Of a DNA stretch of 12,529 nucleotides, positions 1,633 through 12,529 are shown piece after piece. A program made the position numbers and the translations under genes. The notes under the pieces were generated by a model that worked only from the letters and a program-made list of their open reading frames with translations, was not told the DNA's origin and ran no database searches. The first letter of the stretch is position 1. Every line of letters begins with the position of its first letter. Source of the stretch: a virus (lineage: Duplodnaviria > Heunggongvirae > Uroviricota > Caudoviricetes); the IMG/VR virus record IMGVR_UViG_2671180699_000002. The stretch is one strand, 5' to 3'.

Positions 1633-1788
1633 TTACTCCTCAGGTTCGTAAGCTGTGAAGACAGCGACCTCCGTCTGGCCGGTTCGGATTCGTACCTCGC
1701 AGAGGTCTTTCCTCGTTACCAGTGCCGTCACTATGACGGTTAAACAGATGACGATCAGGGCGATTAACATCGCCTTTTGCTGCTTCAT
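1633..1788 (-). CDS. hokD: Hok-family type I toxin (small membrane-depolarising peptide), 51 aa
   Basis: Hand translation of the minus strand gives MKQQKAMLIALIVICLTVIVTALVTRKDLCEVRIRTGQTEVAVFTAYEPEE, which matches my recollection of E. coli HokD/RelF. ATG at 1788..1786, TAA at 1635..1633, SD AAGGAG about 10 nt upstream. The ORF is under 60 aa and so absent from the supplied track. Confidence 0.93.
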   Translation of the reverse strand: MKQQKAMLIALIVICLTVIVTALVTRKDLCEVRIRTGQTEVAVFTAYEPEE

Positions 1789-2046
1789 AGCCTGCTTCTC
1801 CTTGACCTTTCGGTCCGTAAGAGGCTAATCTCTATGTGTCGCATAGATATGGCCTCAGATTAATGTTAAGCGTCTTGCAGGACGCGTAATGTTAACTGGG
1901 GCTTTTCTCTATCTGCCTTTTGGTGTTCATGCCTGAGACAGATAGCCTCAAGCACCCGCAGTCATTCTACTTAACTAAGATTTCCCCGCAAACCGTTTTT
2001 GTCCGGCACAGTAAATATCCAACTAAACCAATGGCGTTCGCTGTAT
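1789..2046 (-). promoter_or_regulatory. hok mRNA leader region (about 260 nt) with a coupled upstream ORF and a long hairpin
   Basis: Non-coding stretch between the stop of the 59-aa membrane gene and the hok ATG. Contains a 19-codon uORF (1844..1785) whose TGA overlaps the hok ATG (ATGA), and an imperfect hairpin at 1821-1856 that covers the uORF start codon. Confidence 0.5.
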
Positions 2047-3084: not shown

Positions 3085-3154
3085 CCTCCTGATGTTCTGA
3101 GGGTGCAGAAATCCCTCCGGTTAAGGATTAAATTTTTAACAGAGCTAAATTTAA

Positions 3155-3511
3155 TTATTCAGTTCTGGATTTTGTCGCCCTGCGTATCCGCGCTTTCGCG
3201 TTACGCTCAATCTGAATTAGCTTTTCTATATTTTTTCGCCTTTCCCGCTCCTCCTGACGCAAGAGCCTTACATCATCTGCCAGTCTGGTTTCTCTTTTCG
3301 CCACAGAGAGCATCCAGTCAAATGGCTCCACAACTGCACCGCAGATTTTACAGCGGACCTGACGCTCTTTTTCGTCAACCCGGACAGAGGCGTGATGACA
3401 ATATGGTCTTTCCGATGGCTCATAAAGAAAATTAACCTGATTACGAGGGTCATCCTCTTTTACCGGAAATAAAACGATATTGCTTAACTCATCCTCTGGT
3501 TTTATTTCCAT
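3155..3511 (-). CDS. Hypothetical protein, 118 aa, with Zn-ribbon-like Cys/His motif and basic coiled-coil C-terminus
   Basis: ATG at 3511..3509 preceded by AAGGAGAGGAG. An alternative GTG start at 3568 (137 aa) also has an AGGAGG about 11 nt upstream. Motif YCHH...CKICG; C-terminal R/E/K-rich helix. Confidence 0.65.
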   Translation of the reverse strand: MEIKPEDELSNIVLFPVKEDDPRNQVNFLYEPSERPYCHHASVRVDEKERQVRCKICGAVVEPFDWMLSVAKRETRLADDVRLLRQEERERRKNIEKLIQIERNAKARIRRATKSRTE

Positions 3512-5917: not shown

Positions 5918-6556
5918 ATGAGCAAGCAAACTATATCTGAACGCATAACCCAACGTATGCATGCGCTAAACCTGAAAGGCAAAGACCTTGTCAATGGCAC
6001 TGGCGCATCAAAAGGCTCCGTAAGTCAATGGATGAACGGTGGAGGAGCGCCGTCCTCGCGTTACATAAGTTCACTGGCAAAAATATTGAAAGTAAACGAA
6101 AATTGGCTTCTTAATGGAGGAGAGTTAAATACAGGTGATTCGCTTGATCTATCTTTACCGCCGATAAAAACGGTTCCGCTACTATCACTTCAGCAGGCAG
6201 CAAGCTGGAGTGATTATATGAAAAATTCCTCAATAACCTCTTGTGTGCAGCTTGTCGGAGAAATCCCGGTCAATACCTTTGCAGTTGTTCTAGAGAGTGA
6301 CAGTATGTCAACATCTGGTGGGGGAGTTTCCATCCCAAATGGTTCAACAGTTTTTGTTGATCCCGATCGAACCGTACAACCAGGAAATATTGTCCTTGCC
6401 TTACCCAAAGGGACCACAACACCTGTCATTCGTAAACTGGAGATAGAAGGGCCGGATATTCTTTTAGTCCCCACGAATCCTCGCTACCCTTCAATTATGC
6501 TGGATGATCTATCTTGCATATTGGGCGTATGCTTTAAAATTCAACAAGATATTTAA
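5918..6556 (+). CDS. CI-like prophage repressor: N-terminal HTH plus C-terminal S24 (LexA-like) autopeptidase domain, 212 aa
   Basis: N-terminal HTH region (KGKDLVNGTGASKGSVSQWMNG); C-terminal ESDSMS serine motif and downstream RKLE lysine, typical of LexA/CI/UmuD self-cleaving proteins. Divergent from the cro-like gene. Confidence 0.9.
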   Translation: MSKQTISERITQRMHALNLKGKDLVNGTGASKGSVSQWMNGGGAPSSRYISSLAKILKVNENWLLNGGELNTGDSLDLSLPPIKTVPLLSLQQAASWSDYMKNSSITSCVQLVGEIPVNTFAVVLESDSMSTSGGGVSIPNGSTVFVDPDRTVQPGNIVLALPKGTTTPVIRKLEIEGPDILLVPTNPRYPSIMLDDLSCILGVCFKIQQDI

Positions 6557-7163: not shown

Positions 7164-7382
7164 ATGCAGAAACGAGAACCCGTCATCATCGCGCCAGACT
7201 ATACCGATGATGAACTTTATGAGTGGATGCGCCAGAAAATTAATGCAGCGCAGGATCTGAAATGGGCCAATGAAGCCAGGGCTAAGCAGGCTGAAAATCT
7301 GTCCGCTCTGGAGCAGGATATCACCAATCTGGAAAAAGCAGCGGCATTAAGCATTGCCAGAATGATTACATACCCGCGTTAA
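7164..7382 (+). CDS. ydfC: YdfC-like protein, 72 aa
   Basis: ATG at 7164 with GAGGAA 5 nt upstream; length and position match Qin ydfC as recalled. Confidence 0.8.
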   Translation: MQKREPVIIAPDYTDDELYEWMRQKINAAQDLKWANEARAKQAENLSALEQDITNLEKAAALSIARMITYPR

Positions 7383-7722: not shown

Positions 7723-7775
7723 TTTCTGGTGACGTTTGGCGGTATCAGTTTTACTCCGTGACTGCTCTGCCGCCC
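7723..7775 (+). ncRNA. dicF: DicF small regulatory RNA (cell-division inhibitor; base-pairs with ftsZ mRNA)
   Basis: The sequence TTTCTGGTGACGTTTGGCGGTATCAGTTTTACTCCGTGACTGCTCTGCCGCCC matches my recollection of the 53-nt DicF RNA. It ends in a GGCGG...CCGCC hairpin followed by TTTTT, and sits between ydfC and dicB as in Qin. Confidence 0.88.
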
Positions 7776-7780: not shown

Positions 7781-7949
7781 AAAGTGAATTTTGTGATGTG
7801 GTGAATGCGGCTGAGCGCACGCGGAACAGTTAAAACCAAAAACAGTGTTATGGGTGGATTCTCTGTATCCGGCGTTAATTGTTAACTGGTTAACGTCACC
7901 TGGAGGCACCAGGCACTGCATCACAAAATTCATTGTTGAGGACGCGATA

Positions 7950-8138
7950 ATGAAAACGTTATTACCAAACGTTAATACGTCTGAAGGTTGTTTTGAAATT
8001 GGTGTCACTATCAGTAACCCAGTATTTACTGAAGATGCCATTAACAAGAGAAAACAAGAACGGGAGCTATTAAATAAAATATGCATTGTTTCAATGCTGG
8101 CTCGTTTACGTCTGATGCCAAAAGGATGTGCACAATGA
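7950..8138 (+). CDS. dicB: DicB cell-division inhibitor (acts through MinC), 62 aa
   Basis: MKTLLPNVNTSEGCFEIGVTISNPVFTEDAINKRKQERELLNKICIVSMLARLRLMPKGCAQ matches my recollection of DicB. GAGGA SD 7 nt upstream. The track ORF 7845-8138 is a spurious N-terminal extension. Confidence 0.92.
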   Translation: MKTLLPNVNTSEGCFEIGVTISNPVFTEDAINKRKQERELLNKICIVSMLARLRLMPKGCAQ

Positions 8139-8326: not shown

Positions 8327-8418
8327 AACAGTTCCGTAATAAATATCCGGTTTCATTCTTATATGCCAGCAATGGCAGGGATTTGTTCATCCTTAAATCT
8401 GTCATGAGGTTAAAACAA

Positions 8419-10890
8419 ATGAGTAAAGTCTTTATTTGCGCCGCTATTCCTGACGAACTGGCAACAAGGGAAGAAGGCGCTGTGGCTGTAGCCACAGCCA
8501 TTGAAGCTGGCGACGAACGCCGTGCTCGAGCAAAATTTCACTGGCAATTCCTGGAACATTATCCGGCTGCTCAGGACTGCGCTTATAAATTTATTGTCTG
8601 CGAGGATAAACCTGGCATACCCCGCCCTGCCCTCGATTCATGGGATGCTGAATATATGCAGGAAAACCGCTGGGATGAGGAGTCTGCTTCTTTTGTCCCG
8701 GTTGAGACTGAATCCGATCCGATGAACGTCACTTTTGACAAGCTGGCCCCTGAAGTACAGAACGCTGTCATGGTTAAGTTCGACACATGTGAAAACATCA
8801 CCGTTGATATGGTTATTAGCGCACAGGAATTGTTGCAGGAAGACATGGCAACATTCGACGGACATATCGTTGAAGCGTTGATGAAAATGCCAGAAGTTAA
8901 CGCCATGTATCCGGAGCTTAAGTTGCACGCCATTGGGTGGGTTAAGCATAAATGTATTCCTGGTGCTAAATGGCCCGAAATTCAGGCAGAGATGCGCATC
9001 TGGAAAAAACGTCGCGAAGGTGAACGCAAGGAAACCGGAAAATACACGTCTGTTGTTGATCTCGCCCGCGCCAGAGCCAATCAACAGTACACTGAAAATT
9101 CAACAGGAAAAATCAGCCCGGTCATTGCTGCCATTCATCGCGAATACAAGCAGACATGGAAAACACTGGATGACGAACTGGCCTACGCTCTCTGGCCTGG
9201 TGATGTGGATGCCGGAAACATTGACGGCAGCATCCATCGCTGGGCAAAAAATGAAGTTATCGACAACGACCGCGAAGACTGGAAGCGTATCTCGGCATCA
9301 ATGCGCAAACAGCCTGATGCCCTTCGCTACGACCGCCAAACTATTTTTGGCCTTGTCCGTGAGCGTCCGATCGACATTCACAAAGATCCCGTAGCACTGA
9401 ACAAATATATCTGCGAATACCTGACGACAAAGGGCGTGTTTGAGAATGAAGAAACAGACCTGGGCACTGTTGATGTTCTCCAGTCATCAGAAACACAAAC
9501 TGATGCAGTGGAAACTGAGGTATCTGATATCCCAAAAAATGAAACCGCGCCGGAAGCTGAACCATCTGTAGAGCGTGAGGGGCCGTTCTATTTCCTCTTC
9601 GCAGATAAGGACGGAGAAAAATACGGTCGCGCAAACAAACTTTCTGGTCTGGATAAGGCACTGGCTGCTGGCGCCACTGAAATCACAAAAGAAGAATATT
9701 TTGCCCGAAAAAATGGCACATACACGGGCTTACCGCAAAATGTAGATACCGCTGAAGATTCAGAACAACCAGAGCCGATAAAAGTTACCGCTGACGAAGT
9801 AAACAAAATTATGCAGGCAGCCAATATCATCCAGCCTGACGCCGATAAGTTGCTTGCTGCATCACGTGGTGAATTTGTTGAAGGGATTAGTGACCCGAAT
9901 GATCCGAAATGGGTTAAGGGGATCCAGACCCGCGATTCTGTGAACCAGAACCAGCATGAATCGGAACGGAACTACCAAAAAGCGGAACAAAACAGCCCAA
10001 ATGCGTTACAAAACGAGCCAGAAACGAAACAGCCTGAATCAGTGGCGCAACAGGAAGTGGAAAAAGTCTGCACCGCCTGCGGTCAGACCGGCGGCGGCAA
10101 CTGCCCTGATTGTGGCGCGGTAATGGGCGACGCAACATACCAGGAAACATTCGATGAAGAGTATCAGATTGAAGTTCAGGAAGATGATCCGGAGGAAATG
10201 GAAGGCGCTGAACATCCACACAAGGAGAACACTGGCGGCAATCAGCATCACGATAGCGATAATGAAACTGGCGAGACGGCAGATCACTCAATTAAGGTGA
10301 ACGGTCATCAAGAAATCACATCCACCAGCAGGACGTGTGACCATCTAATGATCGACCTTGAAACCATGGGAAAAAATCCTGATGCCCCGATCATCTCAAT
10401 AGGTGCAATATTTTTCGATCCGCAAACCGGAGATATGGGACCGGAATTTAGTAAGACTATCGATCTGGAAACTGCTGGCGGAGTCATTGATCGGGACACC
10501 ATTAAATGGTGGCTTAAGCAATCACGCGAAGCGCAATCTGCCATTATGACCGATGAAATCCCGTTAGATGATGCACTGTTACAATTGTGGGAATTTATCG
10601 ACGAAAACTCCGGTGAATTTTTTGTTCAGGTCTGGGGAAATGGAGCCAACTTCGACAACACGATTTTGCGCCGTTCATACGAACGGCAGGGGATCCCCTG
10701 CCCGTGGCGTTACTACAACGATCGCGATGTACGCACAATCGTTGAGCTGGGGAAAGCCATAGACTTCGATGCCAGAACGGCTATTCCATTCGAAGGTGAG
10801 CGCCATAATGCACTTGATGACGCCCGTTACCAGGCAAAATACGTTTCAGTTATCTGGCAAAAACTGATCCCGAGTCAGGCTGATTCTTAA
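8419..10890 (+). CDS. Large multi-domain protein, 823 aa: uncharacterised N-terminal region, acidic linker, CxxC...CxxC zinc-ribbon-like motif, C-terminal DEDDh (DnaQ-like) 3'-5' exonuclease domain
   Basis: ATG at 8419 with GAGG 9 nt upstream (the track ORF begins at an upstream TTG, 8383). C-terminal motifs: Exo I IDLETMG, Exo II GNGANFDNT, Exo III ERHNALDDARYQ. Zinc-ribbon-like CTACGQTGGGNCPDCG. Occupies the exo/recE position next to xis-int. Confidence 0.88.
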   Translation: MSKVFICAAIPDELATREEGAVAVATAIEAGDERRARAKFHWQFLEHYPAAQDCAYKFIVCEDKPGIPRPALDSWDAEYMQENRWDEESASFVPVETESDPMNVTFDKLAPEVQNAVMVKFDTCENITVDMVISAQELLQEDMATFDGHIVEALMKMPEVNAMYPELKLHAIGWVKHKCIPGAKWPEIQAEMRIWKKRREGERKETGKYTSVVDLARARANQQYTENSTGKISPVIAAIHREYKQTWKTLDDELAYALWPGDVDAGNIDGSIHRWAKNEVIDNDREDWKRISASMRKQPDALRYDRQTIFGLVRERPIDIHKDPVALNKYICEYLTTKGVFENEETDLGTVDVLQSSETQTDAVETEVSDIPKNETAPEAEPSVEREGPFYFLFADKDGEKYGRANKLSGLDKALAAGATEITKEEYFARKNGTYTGLPQNVDTAEDSEQPEPIKVTADEVNKIMQAANIIQPDADKLLAASRGEFVEGISDPNDPKWVKGIQTRDSVNQNQHESERNYQKAEQNSPNALQNEPETKQPESVAQQEVEKVCTACGQTGGGNCPDCGAVMGDATYQETFDEEYQIEVQEDDPEEMEGAEHPHKENTGGNQHHDSDNETGETADHSIKVNGHQEITSTSRTCDHLMIDLETMGKNPDAPIISIGAIFFDPQTGDMGPEFSKTIDLETAGGVIDRDTIKWWLKQSREAQSAIMTDEIPLDDALLQLWEFIDENSGEFFVQVWGNGANFDNTILRRSYERQGIPCPWRYYNDRDVRTIVELGKAIDFDARTAIPFEGERHNALDDARYQAKYVSVIWQKLIPSQADS

Positions 10891-10901
10891 TGTTCAACTG
10901 T

Positions 10902-10933
10902 CGCCGGTTGTGACTGGTATTCTGCAACCGGCG
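10902..10933 (+). other. Stem-loop between the exonuclease gene and xis (9-bp stem, 14-nt loop)
   Basis: CGCCGGTTG (10902-10910) pairs with CAACCGGCG (10925-10933); no following T-tract. Confidence 0.5.
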
Positions 10934-10962
10934 CTCGTCTGATGTAAGAGATAAAGAAATCG

Positions 10963-11214
10963 ATGAGCGAAGTAATCATGATTGTCTCTCCCGGCAAATG
11001 GGTATCCGAAGAGCAGTTAATTGCGCTGAAAGGAATAAAAAAAGGTACGTTAAAAAAGGCCCGGGAAAAATCGTTTATGGAAGGAAGGGAATATAAGCAT
11101 GTCGCTCATGACGGTATGCCATGGGATAACAGTCCATGCTTTTACAACCTGGAAGAAATTGATCGCTGGATTGAGCGCCAGGCATCAGCAAGACCAAGAC
11201 GTCATCTTACTTGA
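10963..11214 (+). CDS. xis: Excisionase (Xis-like), 83 aa
   Basis: Small protein immediately upstream of int, containing a GREY motif (MEGREYKHV) like the DGREY of lambda Xis-type excisionases. SD is weak; an alternative internal start is possible. Confidence 0.75.
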   Translation: MSEVIMIVSPGKWVSEEQLIALKGIKKGTLKKAREKSFMEGREYKHVAHDGMPWDNSPCFYNLEEIDRWIERQASARPRRHLT

Positions 11215-11248
11215 CTAAAAGCCACACTAACTAATGAGAGAAATTGAA

Positions 11249-12529
11249 ATGAAATATCCGACAGGCGTGGAAAACCATGGAGGGAAATTACGTATCTGGT
11301 TTGTTTATAAAGGCGTAAGAGTCAGGGAAAACCTGGGGGTTCCTGACACAGCAAAAAACAGGCGCGTTGCAGGTGAGCTACGCGCCTCTGTTTGTTACGC
11401 AATAAAAACTGGTGTTTTCGACTATGCAAAACAGTTTCCCTCCTCACGCAATCTGGAAAAATTTGGTGAGACCCGACAAGATTTAACCATAAAAGAACTG
11501 GCTGAAAAATTTCTGGCACTGAAAGAAACTGAAGTCGCAAAAACATCACTCAACACATACCGTGCCGTCATCAAAAATATCCTGAGCATAATCGGTGAAA
11601 AAAATCTTGCCTCATCGATTAATAAAGAAAAATTACTGGAGGTTCGTAAAGAGCTACTGACTGGATACCAGATCCCCAAAAGTAACTATATTGTTACACA
11701 ACCAGGGAGATCGGCTGTAACTGTAAATAATTACATGACAAATCTTAACGCCGTGTTCCAGTTTGGTGTTGATAACGGTTACCTGGCAGATAACCCGTTT
11801 AAGGGGATCTCGCCATTAAAGGAATCAAGAACCATTCCGGATCCTCTTTCGCGGGAGGAATTCATCCGTCTTATCGATGCGTGCAGAAATCAGCAAGCCA
11901 AAAATTTATGGTGTGTTTCTGTTTATACTGGCGTTCGCCCTGGTGAGCTGTGTGCACTTGGATGGGAGGACATAGATCTGAAAAATGGAACAATGATGAT
12001 CAGGAGAAATTTAGCAAAAGACCGTTTCACGGTACCAAAAACACAGGCGGGAACCAATCGGGTCATTCATCTTATTAAGCCAGCAATCGACGCTCTCCGG
12101 AGTCAGATGACATTAACGAGACTGAGCAAAGAGCATATCATTGATGTTCACCTCAGAGAGTATGGCAGAACAGAAAAACATAAATGCACCTTTGTTTTTC
12201 AACCTGAAGTGTCAGCGAGAGTAAAAAATTATGGTGACCATTTTACCGTTGACTCAATAAGGCAGATGTGGGACGCAGCGATAAAACGTGCCGGACTCCG
12301 CCATCGAAAATCATATCAGTCGAGACATACTTATGCCTGCTGGTCGCTGACAGCTGGTGCTAACCCGGCATTTATAGCAAACCAGATGGGCCATGCAGAT
12401 GCGCAAATGGTATTTCAGGTATACGGAAAATGGATGTCTGAAAACAATAATGCACAGGTAGCTTTGTTAAATACACAGTTAAGCGAGTTTGCCCCAACCA
12501 TGCCCCATAACGAAGCAATGAAAAATTAA
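11249..12529 (+). CDS. int: Tyrosine site-specific integrase (lambda Int family), 426 aa
   Basis: Catalytic-domain signatures: TGVRPGEL...W (Arg box), H-x-x-R (SRHTYAC), and LGH...VYGKW containing the presumptive catalytic Tyr. N-terminal arm-type region GKLRIWFVYKG. The track ORF starts 5 codons earlier at ATG 11234 with no SD. The stop is at the window end, so the att site lies beyond it. Confidence 0.93.
   Translation: MKYPTGVENHGGKLRIWFVYKGVRVRENLGVPDTAKNRRVAGELRASVCYAIKTGVFDYAKQFPSSRNLEKFGETRQDLTIKELAEKFLALKETEVAKTSLNTYRAVIKNILSIIGEKNLASSINKEKLLEVRKELLTGYQIPKSNYIVTQPGRSAVTVNNYMTNLNAVFQFGVDNGYLADNPFKGISPLKESRTIPDPLSREEFIRLIDACRNQQAKNLWCVSVYTGVRPGELCALGWEDIDLKNGTMMIRRNLAKDRFTVPKTQAGTNRVIHLIKPAIDALRSQMTLTRLSKEHIIDVHLREYGRTEKHKCTFVFQPEVSARVKNYGDHFTVDSIRQMWDAAIKRAGLRHRKSYQSRHTYACWSLTAGANPAFIANQMGHADAQMVFQVYGKWMSENNNAQVALLNTQLSEFAPTMPHNEAMKN

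Follow-up and report, generated by a model that had tools for sequence, protein, structure and literature searches.

Stable stem-loops that lack a U-tract shield mRNA 3′ ends against PNPase and RNase II (PMC6061677). Where such protective structures are conserved between cistrons, they have been linked to differential decay within operons, such that the message of an upstream gene outlasts that of its downstream neighbor, and the authors of that work suggest that these structures may also depress translation of the downstream gene (PMC5927463). Next to recombination genes, stem-loops in the 5′ untranslated region of ICEKp1 int reduce the int expression that arises from read-through (PMC13023037). 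The polycistronic dicBF mRNA, in turn, is heavily processed (PMC10448788). The locus presented here brings these themes together at the boundary between an exonuclease gene and xis in a lambdoid prophage, where the comparative sequence evidence points to what is most likely a functional RNA hairpin separating the early phage genes from the excision genes.

The stretch analyzed (hereafter the window; 12,529 nucleotides in all) is the immunity and early-left region of a Qin/dicBF-type lambdoid prophage. An identical stretch is present in E. coli 1EC213, in which the host gene rspB comes next after int; this is the Qin integration site. The minus strand carries a Cro-like gene and a YdaT (CII-like) gene, and an S24-type repressor gene lies at 5918-6556. 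On the plus strand the order is ydfA-like, DicF, dicB, ydfD, exonuclease, xis and int, with the DicF small RNA at 7724-7775 (plus strand; Rfam RF00039, 76.7 bits) upstream of dicB (7845-8138, plus strand). The S24 repressor stands in place of DicA, and the lambdoid prophage appears to be intact, with a dicBF-type early-left operon. A sok antitoxin RNA (1786-1957, minus strand; RF01794, 106.7 bits) points to a hok/sok-type toxin-antitoxin locus in the replication/nin-side region; DicF and sok are the only Rfam families to pass their gathering scores in the window. A run of 10 N at 126-135 is masked or unresolved sequence.

The last gene before the hairpin is the exonuclease gene (8383-10890, plus strand, in the open reading frame list; RefSeq places the start at 8419 in an identical locus, L001). 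Its product ends in a DEDDh/Rv2179c-like 3′-5′ exonuclease domain (Pfam PF16473, E = 1.2e-66). This domain (10330-10887) has tblastn matches in 1231 phage records from many hosts, among them distant ones (about 28% identity) to exonuclease A of the T4 DexA type. Downstream, xis (10963-11214, plus strand) encodes a DUF1233 excisionase (Pfam PF06806, E = 1.6e-31, and so annotated by RefSeq), and int (11234-12529, plus strand) encodes a tyrosine integrase with an arm-binding domain and ends where the window ends. The names exonuclease and xis, which had been given from the sequence alone, thus agree with both Pfam and RefSeq, and int follows.

The spacer and its hairpins

The spacer occupies 10891-10962 of the plus strand, 72 nt between the end of the exonuclease reading frame at 10890 (TAA) and the xis start at 10963. 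Within it, a repeat finder recovers two 9-nt arms that are 100% complementary and 14 nt apart: the 5′ arm of hairpin 1 at 10902-10910 (CGCCGGTTG, as RNA CGCCGGUUG) and the 3′ arm at 10925-10933 (CAACCGGCG), both on the plus strand, with the 14-nt loop UGACUGGUAUUCUG at 10911-10924 between them. As an example of a disrupted 5′ arm, CGGGCCTTG would replace CGCCGGTTG. Directly 3′ of the stem the sequence reads CTCGTCTGATGTAAG, which is no U-tract. The initial annotation had described a 9-bp GC-rich stem with a 14-nt loop, lying in a 72-nt spacer and followed by no U-tract, and the repeat finder and direct reading bear out every detail.

The folding energy of hairpin 1 by itself is -17.5 kcal/mol (z = -3.6 relative to dinucleotide shuffles), and that of its 96-nt context -27.1 kcal/mol (z = -2.35). 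The window has four perfect 9-bp hairpins with loops of 3-20 nt, where shuffles yield 0.9 per 12.5 kb, so that the chance of finding one in this particular 72-nt spacer is about 0.005. Hairpin 1 is not a chance fold. Two further perfect 9-bp inverted repeats in the window are one made up of A and T alone (3127-3155) and, within the ydfB/ydfC-like region, TCATCATCG (7183-7213; 13-nt loop).

The exonuclease stop codon (TAA, 10888-10890) overlaps an ATG as UAAUG and runs into the conserved block UGUUCAAC (10891-10898), the whole feature spanning 10888-10898 of the plus strand; BLAST end-points and alignments agree that the block up to 10898 is the last stretch common to all of the hairpin classes described below. 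From the TAATG a mini-ORF (10888-10913; MFNCRRL, then stop) enters the 5′ arm of the hairpin, and ribosomes reinitiating at UAAUG could transiently melt the stem. A conserved leader peptide starting at this overlap was considered and rejected: the corresponding reading frames are 7, 18, 46, 7, 17 and 30 aa long and are not conserved.

A second, weaker hairpin is predicted at 10933-10968 (plus strand), where GCUCGUC (10933-10939) pairs with GAUGAGC (10962-10968) in both the minimum free energy and the centroid structures. Hairpin 2 is predicted to enclose the xis Shine-Dalgarno region and to pair the xis AUG (10963-10965); G10933 is common to both hairpins. An analogous hairpin containing the xis AUG is predicted in the other classes, and natural variation lends weak support to hairpin 2, two changes keeping pairs and one breaking a pair. 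Its predicted loop holds an AUG-UAA start-stop pair (10942-10947), 16 nt upstream of the xis AUG.

Hairpin classes and selection on pairing

Junctions were collected by scanning IMG/VR for the exonuclease 3′ end together with five xis starts, and from Escherichia and Shigella genomes, giving a sample of about 530 loci. Every one of these junctions carries a stable hairpin, which begins 11-14 nt past the exonuclease stop. Sorted by sequence, the hairpins form at least six classes (A, A′, B, C, D and E), each linked to a different xis/int module, and a U-tract after the hairpin is absent from all six. Stems measure 9-14 bp and loops 8-14 nt across the classes: in B and C an AT-rich spacer of 8 nt separates arms of 12-13 bp, while the spacer is 13 nt in class D and 14 nt in class A. 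Prophages integrated at potC (class A′) carry a hairpin homologous to that of the window, CGCCAGTTG/CAACTGGCG, with a compensatory change from G-C to A-U and an unrelated xis/int pair behind it; those integrated at a tRNA-Ser gene have a different hairpin in the same place, AATTGCCGCTAAC-8 nt-GTTAGCGGCGGTT.

Among 5426 complete E. coli genomes, at least 2561 contain the class A hairpin with the same xis and int, matched over almost the entire 601-nt junction, and 4101 contain the exonuclease 3′ end that precedes all of the classes; between about half and three quarters of these genomes carry the hairpin. Inducible phages such as Tritos, HannyBb, mEp460_ev081 and PhiR42_1 are also among the carriers, and the junction occurs in four deposited phages at 99.5-99.7% identity. 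A scan of genome contigs with a degenerate pattern for the exonuclease 3′ end returned mostly chance matches; the real loci came from Escherichia and Shigella only and belonged to known classes in every case.

Each prophage has a single copy. A covariance model built from classes B-E gives one match per prophage locus, at this junction only (1.4 Mb searched), and a looser survey with a regular-expression motif over 4.6 Mb agrees. A dispersed palindrome of the REP/BIME type does not fit this pattern of one copy per prophage at one junction. The same model scores 17-19 bits for class A′ and finds no match in the window, so that common descent of class A with B-E is not demonstrable, and yet the lower stem UCGCCG/CGGCGR is common to class A and B-E. 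The distal stem varies with the xis/int module, and the lower-stem core and a loop motif are kept in a segment that otherwise diverges rapidly.

The hairpin also sits where prophage modules are exchanged. By BLAST, homology to prophages of classes B-E stops at 10898, just before the stem, and homology to the potC type stops at 10934, just after it, so that the mosaic breakpoints flank the hairpin exactly. The xis genes of classes A, A′, B, C and D always lie behind the exonuclease gene plus hairpin (46 to about 120 loci per class), and travel of the hairpin with xis is therefore not separable from travel with the exonuclease gene. A few loci are chimeric: L055 joins the 5′ arm and loop of class A′ to the 3′ arm of class A, leaving an A·C mismatch from a crossover in the loop, and L043 and L023 combine the lower stem of class D with the loop of class B.

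Related phages outside these classes mark the limits of the association. In epsilon34, abc2 comes after the short homologue of the exonuclease domain, and the 15 nt between them hold no hairpin; mEp460 and ST64B, in which xis does follow, have only a weak hairpin of 4-6 bp. The hairpin accordingly does not accompany this exonuclease domain as a rule. Upstream of lambda xis there is no inverted repeat, and J02459 carries no tL3 annotation. In the Qin prophage of K-12 MG1655 (locus L590, 1650078-1652708), IS2E replaces the 3′ part of the exonuclease gene, the hairpin, xis and the 5′ end of int, and ydfE and intQ are pseudogenes. Since K-12 Qin lacks the junction, K-12 transcriptome maps are uninformative on the hairpin, and its loss from that strain may explain why it has gone unnoticed.

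Substitutions across this collection preserve pairing. Among 21 distinct B-E sequences, 97.8% of stem cells are paired even though 10 of 11 pairs vary, four of them with changes on both sides; sliding the 3′ partner by 1-3 columns as a control lowers pairing to 19-79%. RNAalifold, run unprompted, returns the same 10-bp stem in B-E (covariation term -2.04). Classes A and A′ behave alike: 97.9% of cells are paired across 16 distinct sequences, and one compensatory pair (G-C to A-U) is found in 6 of them. Variants that break pairs are rare and fall at helix ends (L091, L040, L453) or in the in-loop recombinant L055. The initial annotation had named lack of conservation of the stem in homologous prophages as the outcome that would speak against it; in those prophages the stem is conserved, with covariation and with G·U pairs that are specific to the sense strand.

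The kind of change is as telling as its extent. In 29 distinct B-E sequences, representing 279 loci, stem cells comprise 236 Watson-Crick pairs, 51 G·U, 1 A·C and 2 others. G·U is seen at 7 of the 10 stem pairs in classes B-E and A·C at 1 (binomial p = 0.035), a comparison in which the sequences are related and a C-to-T mutation bias of the non-template strand could add to the G·U excess. Of the 14 stem columns that vary, 13 show transitions only and one includes a transversion, whereas among variable loop columns 2 are transition-only and 6 include transversions (stem versus loop, Fisher p = 0.0023). Sense-strand folding energies lie between -17.5 and -20.3 kcal/mol in all classes (z -3.6 to -5.1); the antisense strand in classes B and D reaches only -15.5 and -10.2 kcal/mol (z = -1.4). 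A G·U pair on the plus strand is an A·C mismatch on the minus strand, which accounts for uniform plus-strand folds alongside weaker minus-strand folds in B and D. Plus-strand folding in every class, together with its loss from the minus strand in B and D, makes a strong though not absolute case that the object of selection is a sense-RNA hairpin in read-through early-left (dicBF-exo-xis-int) transcripts.

Candidate functions

Catalogued elements offer no ready identity for hairpin 1. No Rfam family overlaps 10891-10962, even at E <= 10 in a permissive scan of 10500-11400, and a literature search found no description of a hairpin at the exonuclease-xis junction; the element is of an ordinary kind, an intercistronic protective or insulating hairpin, but is undescribed at this spot in Rfam or the searchable literature. 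The HnrS and EcOnc small RNAs lie elsewhere, in late genes. Several more specific assignments were considered and set aside. An intrinsic terminator is rejected on a stem-loop that lacks a U-tract in any class, and a terminator scan of classes A, B and C returned none. A Rho terminator just downstream is likewise rejected, the composition over 10934-11100 being G-rich (C/G 0.5-0.7) and not rut-like. The nut/boxB element has a 5-bp stem and a GNRA-like pentaloop beside boxA near an early promoter; the present stems (9-14 bp) and loops (8-14 nt) lie about 4 kb from the repressor-proximal promoter region. As for an integrase core or arm-type site, the sequence from int to the host gene beside it holds no arm-like match in L001 or L003. 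Matches to the YdaT (CII-like) operator, TTGATT-N6-AATCAA, are at chance level in the window (8 found, 10 expected). A 5′ stabilizer of xis-int of the papBA type was also rejected: with cleavage at an RNase E-like GA|UUU motif upstream, some 17-20 nt would remain unpaired ahead of the stem, and the hairpin would probably not be 5′-terminal.

From a conserved, covarying hairpin that is specific to the sense strand and present once, at the junction, we infer a mechanism and a physiological purpose on structural grounds: a protective or insulating intercistronic stem-loop that may act as a barrier to 3′-to-5′ exonucleases and hold xis-int below the upstream genes. We give this reading a probability of roughly 40%. 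The early-left operon (ydfA, DicF, dicB, ydfD, exonuclease, xis, int) would be transcribed from a repressor-controlled promoter, and the hairpin would form in the sense RNA about 11 nt past the exonuclease stop, at a predicted -18 to -20 kcal/mol or so. Poorly translated xis-int RNA would then be cut, and its decay from the 3′ end would proceed as far as the hairpin, where PNPase and RNase II would stall at the base of the stem. Upstream dicB-exonuclease messages would thereby keep a protected hairpin at their 3′ ends and survive longer than the xis-int portion. The hairpin may also lower translation of xis, in concert with the weaker hairpin 2 and its predicted pairing of the xis AUG. The net effect would be an output of Xis and Int that is low relative to the upstream early genes, favoring stability of the prophage.

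Some features sit uneasily with a barrier. The downstream sequence is not rut-like, so the variant with a Rho terminator just beyond the hairpin is unsupported; reinitiation at UAAUG could let ribosomes melt the stem; and a pure barrier leaves unexplained both the conservation of the 3′ half of the loop and its fixed distance to a conserved TTCAAC. The loop varies in its 5′ half and is conserved in its 3′ half, and this holds for all classes. In class A the 3′ half reads TGnTATTCT (10915-10923; n is G, A or C) and resembles an extended -10 element; in the other classes (L012, L003, L006, L008) it reads TATAGT, TATATT or TATAAT, the last in L008. The motif stands 19-20 nt from TTCAAC throughout.

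These properties sustain the main rival to the barrier, which is that the element works as DNA: the loop TATNNT would be the -10 of an activator-dependent or extended -10 promoter for xis-int, and the arms a palindromic operator for a module-specific regulator. The loop motif carries the A2 and T6 required of a -10 hexamer and is conserved while the other half of the loop varies, its spacing to TTCAAC is fixed, a start about 7 nt downstream would give leaders of 17-33 nt to xis, and hairpin class correlates with the xis/int module. We nonetheless consider it unlikely. A sigma-70 scan predicts no promoter in classes A, B or C; no -35 element is present at 16-18 bp, the best candidate being TTCAAC itself, which matches at 3 of 6 positions, a poor -35, at an unfavorable spacing of 19-20 bp. 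No YdaT-type operator is present and the arms do not resemble the att regions. A DNA palindrome, moreover, does not predict stem transitions that keep G·U on one strand or a uniform stability of the sense fold. Lambda pI supplies Int without Xis for lysogenization; transcription started ahead of xis would instead yield the two proteins together, the opposite logic. A further proposal, that a transcript begun at the loop promoter would occlude the xis ribosome-binding site more than a read-through transcript does, was rejected, no consistent folding difference being found.

Alternatively, the stem could act on the polymerase. A partial transcription attenuator or pause hairpin, cutting RNA polymerase read-through from the early-left operon into xis-int, would suit a stable GC-rich stem on the nascent sense RNA directly upstream of recombination genes, and ICEKp1 supplies a precedent (PMC13023037). 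It is a quite improbable reading of this junction: intrinsic termination in E. coli depends on the U-tract (PMC6061677), and no class has one, nor is the downstream composition rut-like.

Equally doubtful, in our estimate, is a modular cis-regulatory excision switch that co-diversifies with xis/int as an RNA operator or a dual-use element. In one version, the core UCGCCG/CGGCGR and the loop UAUNNU may be recognized by a phage or host protein that gates translation of Xis; in another, a dual-use palindrome may serve as a DNA operator around a -10 promoter embedded in the loop and also as an RNA hairpin on read-through transcripts. An RNA operator taken by itself, bound by Xis, Int, the RNase-like domain of the exonuclease or a host factor and controlling xis translation or processing, would draw on the conserved core and loop motif in a fast-diverging segment, on the adjacent hairpin predicted at the xis AUG in several classes, and on a distal stem that differs by xis/int module. 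We rate it as very doubtful, given that class A is not significantly matched by the B-E covariance model, which makes a common recognition code questionable, and that hairpin 2 is weakly backed by natural variation.

The hairpin might instead have no regulatory role, persisting as a mosaic-junction linker that promotes or marks recombination between exonuclease and xis/int modules. Such a linker would sit well with the homology breaks on either side of the stem, the in-loop crossover of L055 and the chimeras L043 and L023. Pairing kept through many independent substitutions, unrelated distal stems, strand-specific G·U and equalized stability are not expected of a neutral linker, and the prospect is a slim one.

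Least probable of all is the RNase III processing or sib-like retroregulation site proposed in the initial annotation, for although the hairpin is a conserved sense-strand duplex, its 9-14 bp stems fall well short of the roughly 22 bp (about two helical turns) accommodated by E. coli RNase III (PMC6212723), it contains no long interrupted helix, and it lies 5′ of xis and int, where lambda sib acts from downstream of int, 3′ of the gene that it regulates. The broader idea that this spacer modulates xis/int after transcription, relative to the upstream genes, fared better and draws indirect support from the comparative evidence.

Significance and comparison with known systems

In lambdoid prophages of the dicBF type (Qin-like), the hairpin stands at the entry to the excision/integration cassette. 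If it limits the output of Xis and Int, it contributes to prophage stability and would affect how excision is averted when the early-left operon is derepressed in a leaky or stochastic way; derepression of this sort has been documented for dicBp (PMC10448788). Apart from function, the element offers a clean natural case of stepwise compensatory evolution through G·U intermediates, and it marks the exact point at which recombination modules are swapped between prophages.

Known systems resemble the junction to different degrees. Tyrosine-recombinase core sites of the lox/FRT type consist of 13-bp inverted repeats around an 8-bp spacer, and classes B and C, with 12-13 bp arms and an 8-nt AT-rich spacer beside an integrase gene, look superficially similar. 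The resemblance does not extend to the 14-nt spacer of class A or the 13-nt spacer of class D; there is no arm match to att, the substitutions are RNA-like, and the prophage junction lies downstream of int. Lambda sib/tI shares with hairpin 1 the general plan of an RNA structure that post-transcriptionally sets Int and Xis from a pL-type transcript. Sib, however, is a long interrupted helix downstream of int, a substrate of RNase III that integration separates from int, whereas the present hairpin is 9-14 bp long, lies upstream of xis and stays linked to it in the prophage. An intrinsic terminator is likewise a GC-rich stem-loop on the nascent sense RNA, but the hairpin here has no U-tract and is negative in terminator scans.

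The 5′ untranslated region of ICEKp1 int offers a possible functional parallel; its stem-loops also lie just upstream of a recombinase gene, damp read-through and stabilize the integrated element (PMC13023037). It belongs to another type of element with other sequences, and its several stem-loops are proposed to terminate transcription (PMC13023037); at the exonuclease-xis junction there is one strong hairpin and one weak, within a phage operon. The protective stem-loops without a U-tract remain for comparison. The hairpin differs from them in being a single-copy, phage-specific sequence and not a REP element, in conserving part of its loop and in having no rut-like C-rich tract downstream, and it shares with the protective class, as set out in PMC5927463 and PMC6061677, a stable GC-rich stem, an intercistronic position just past a stop codon and conservation among relatives.
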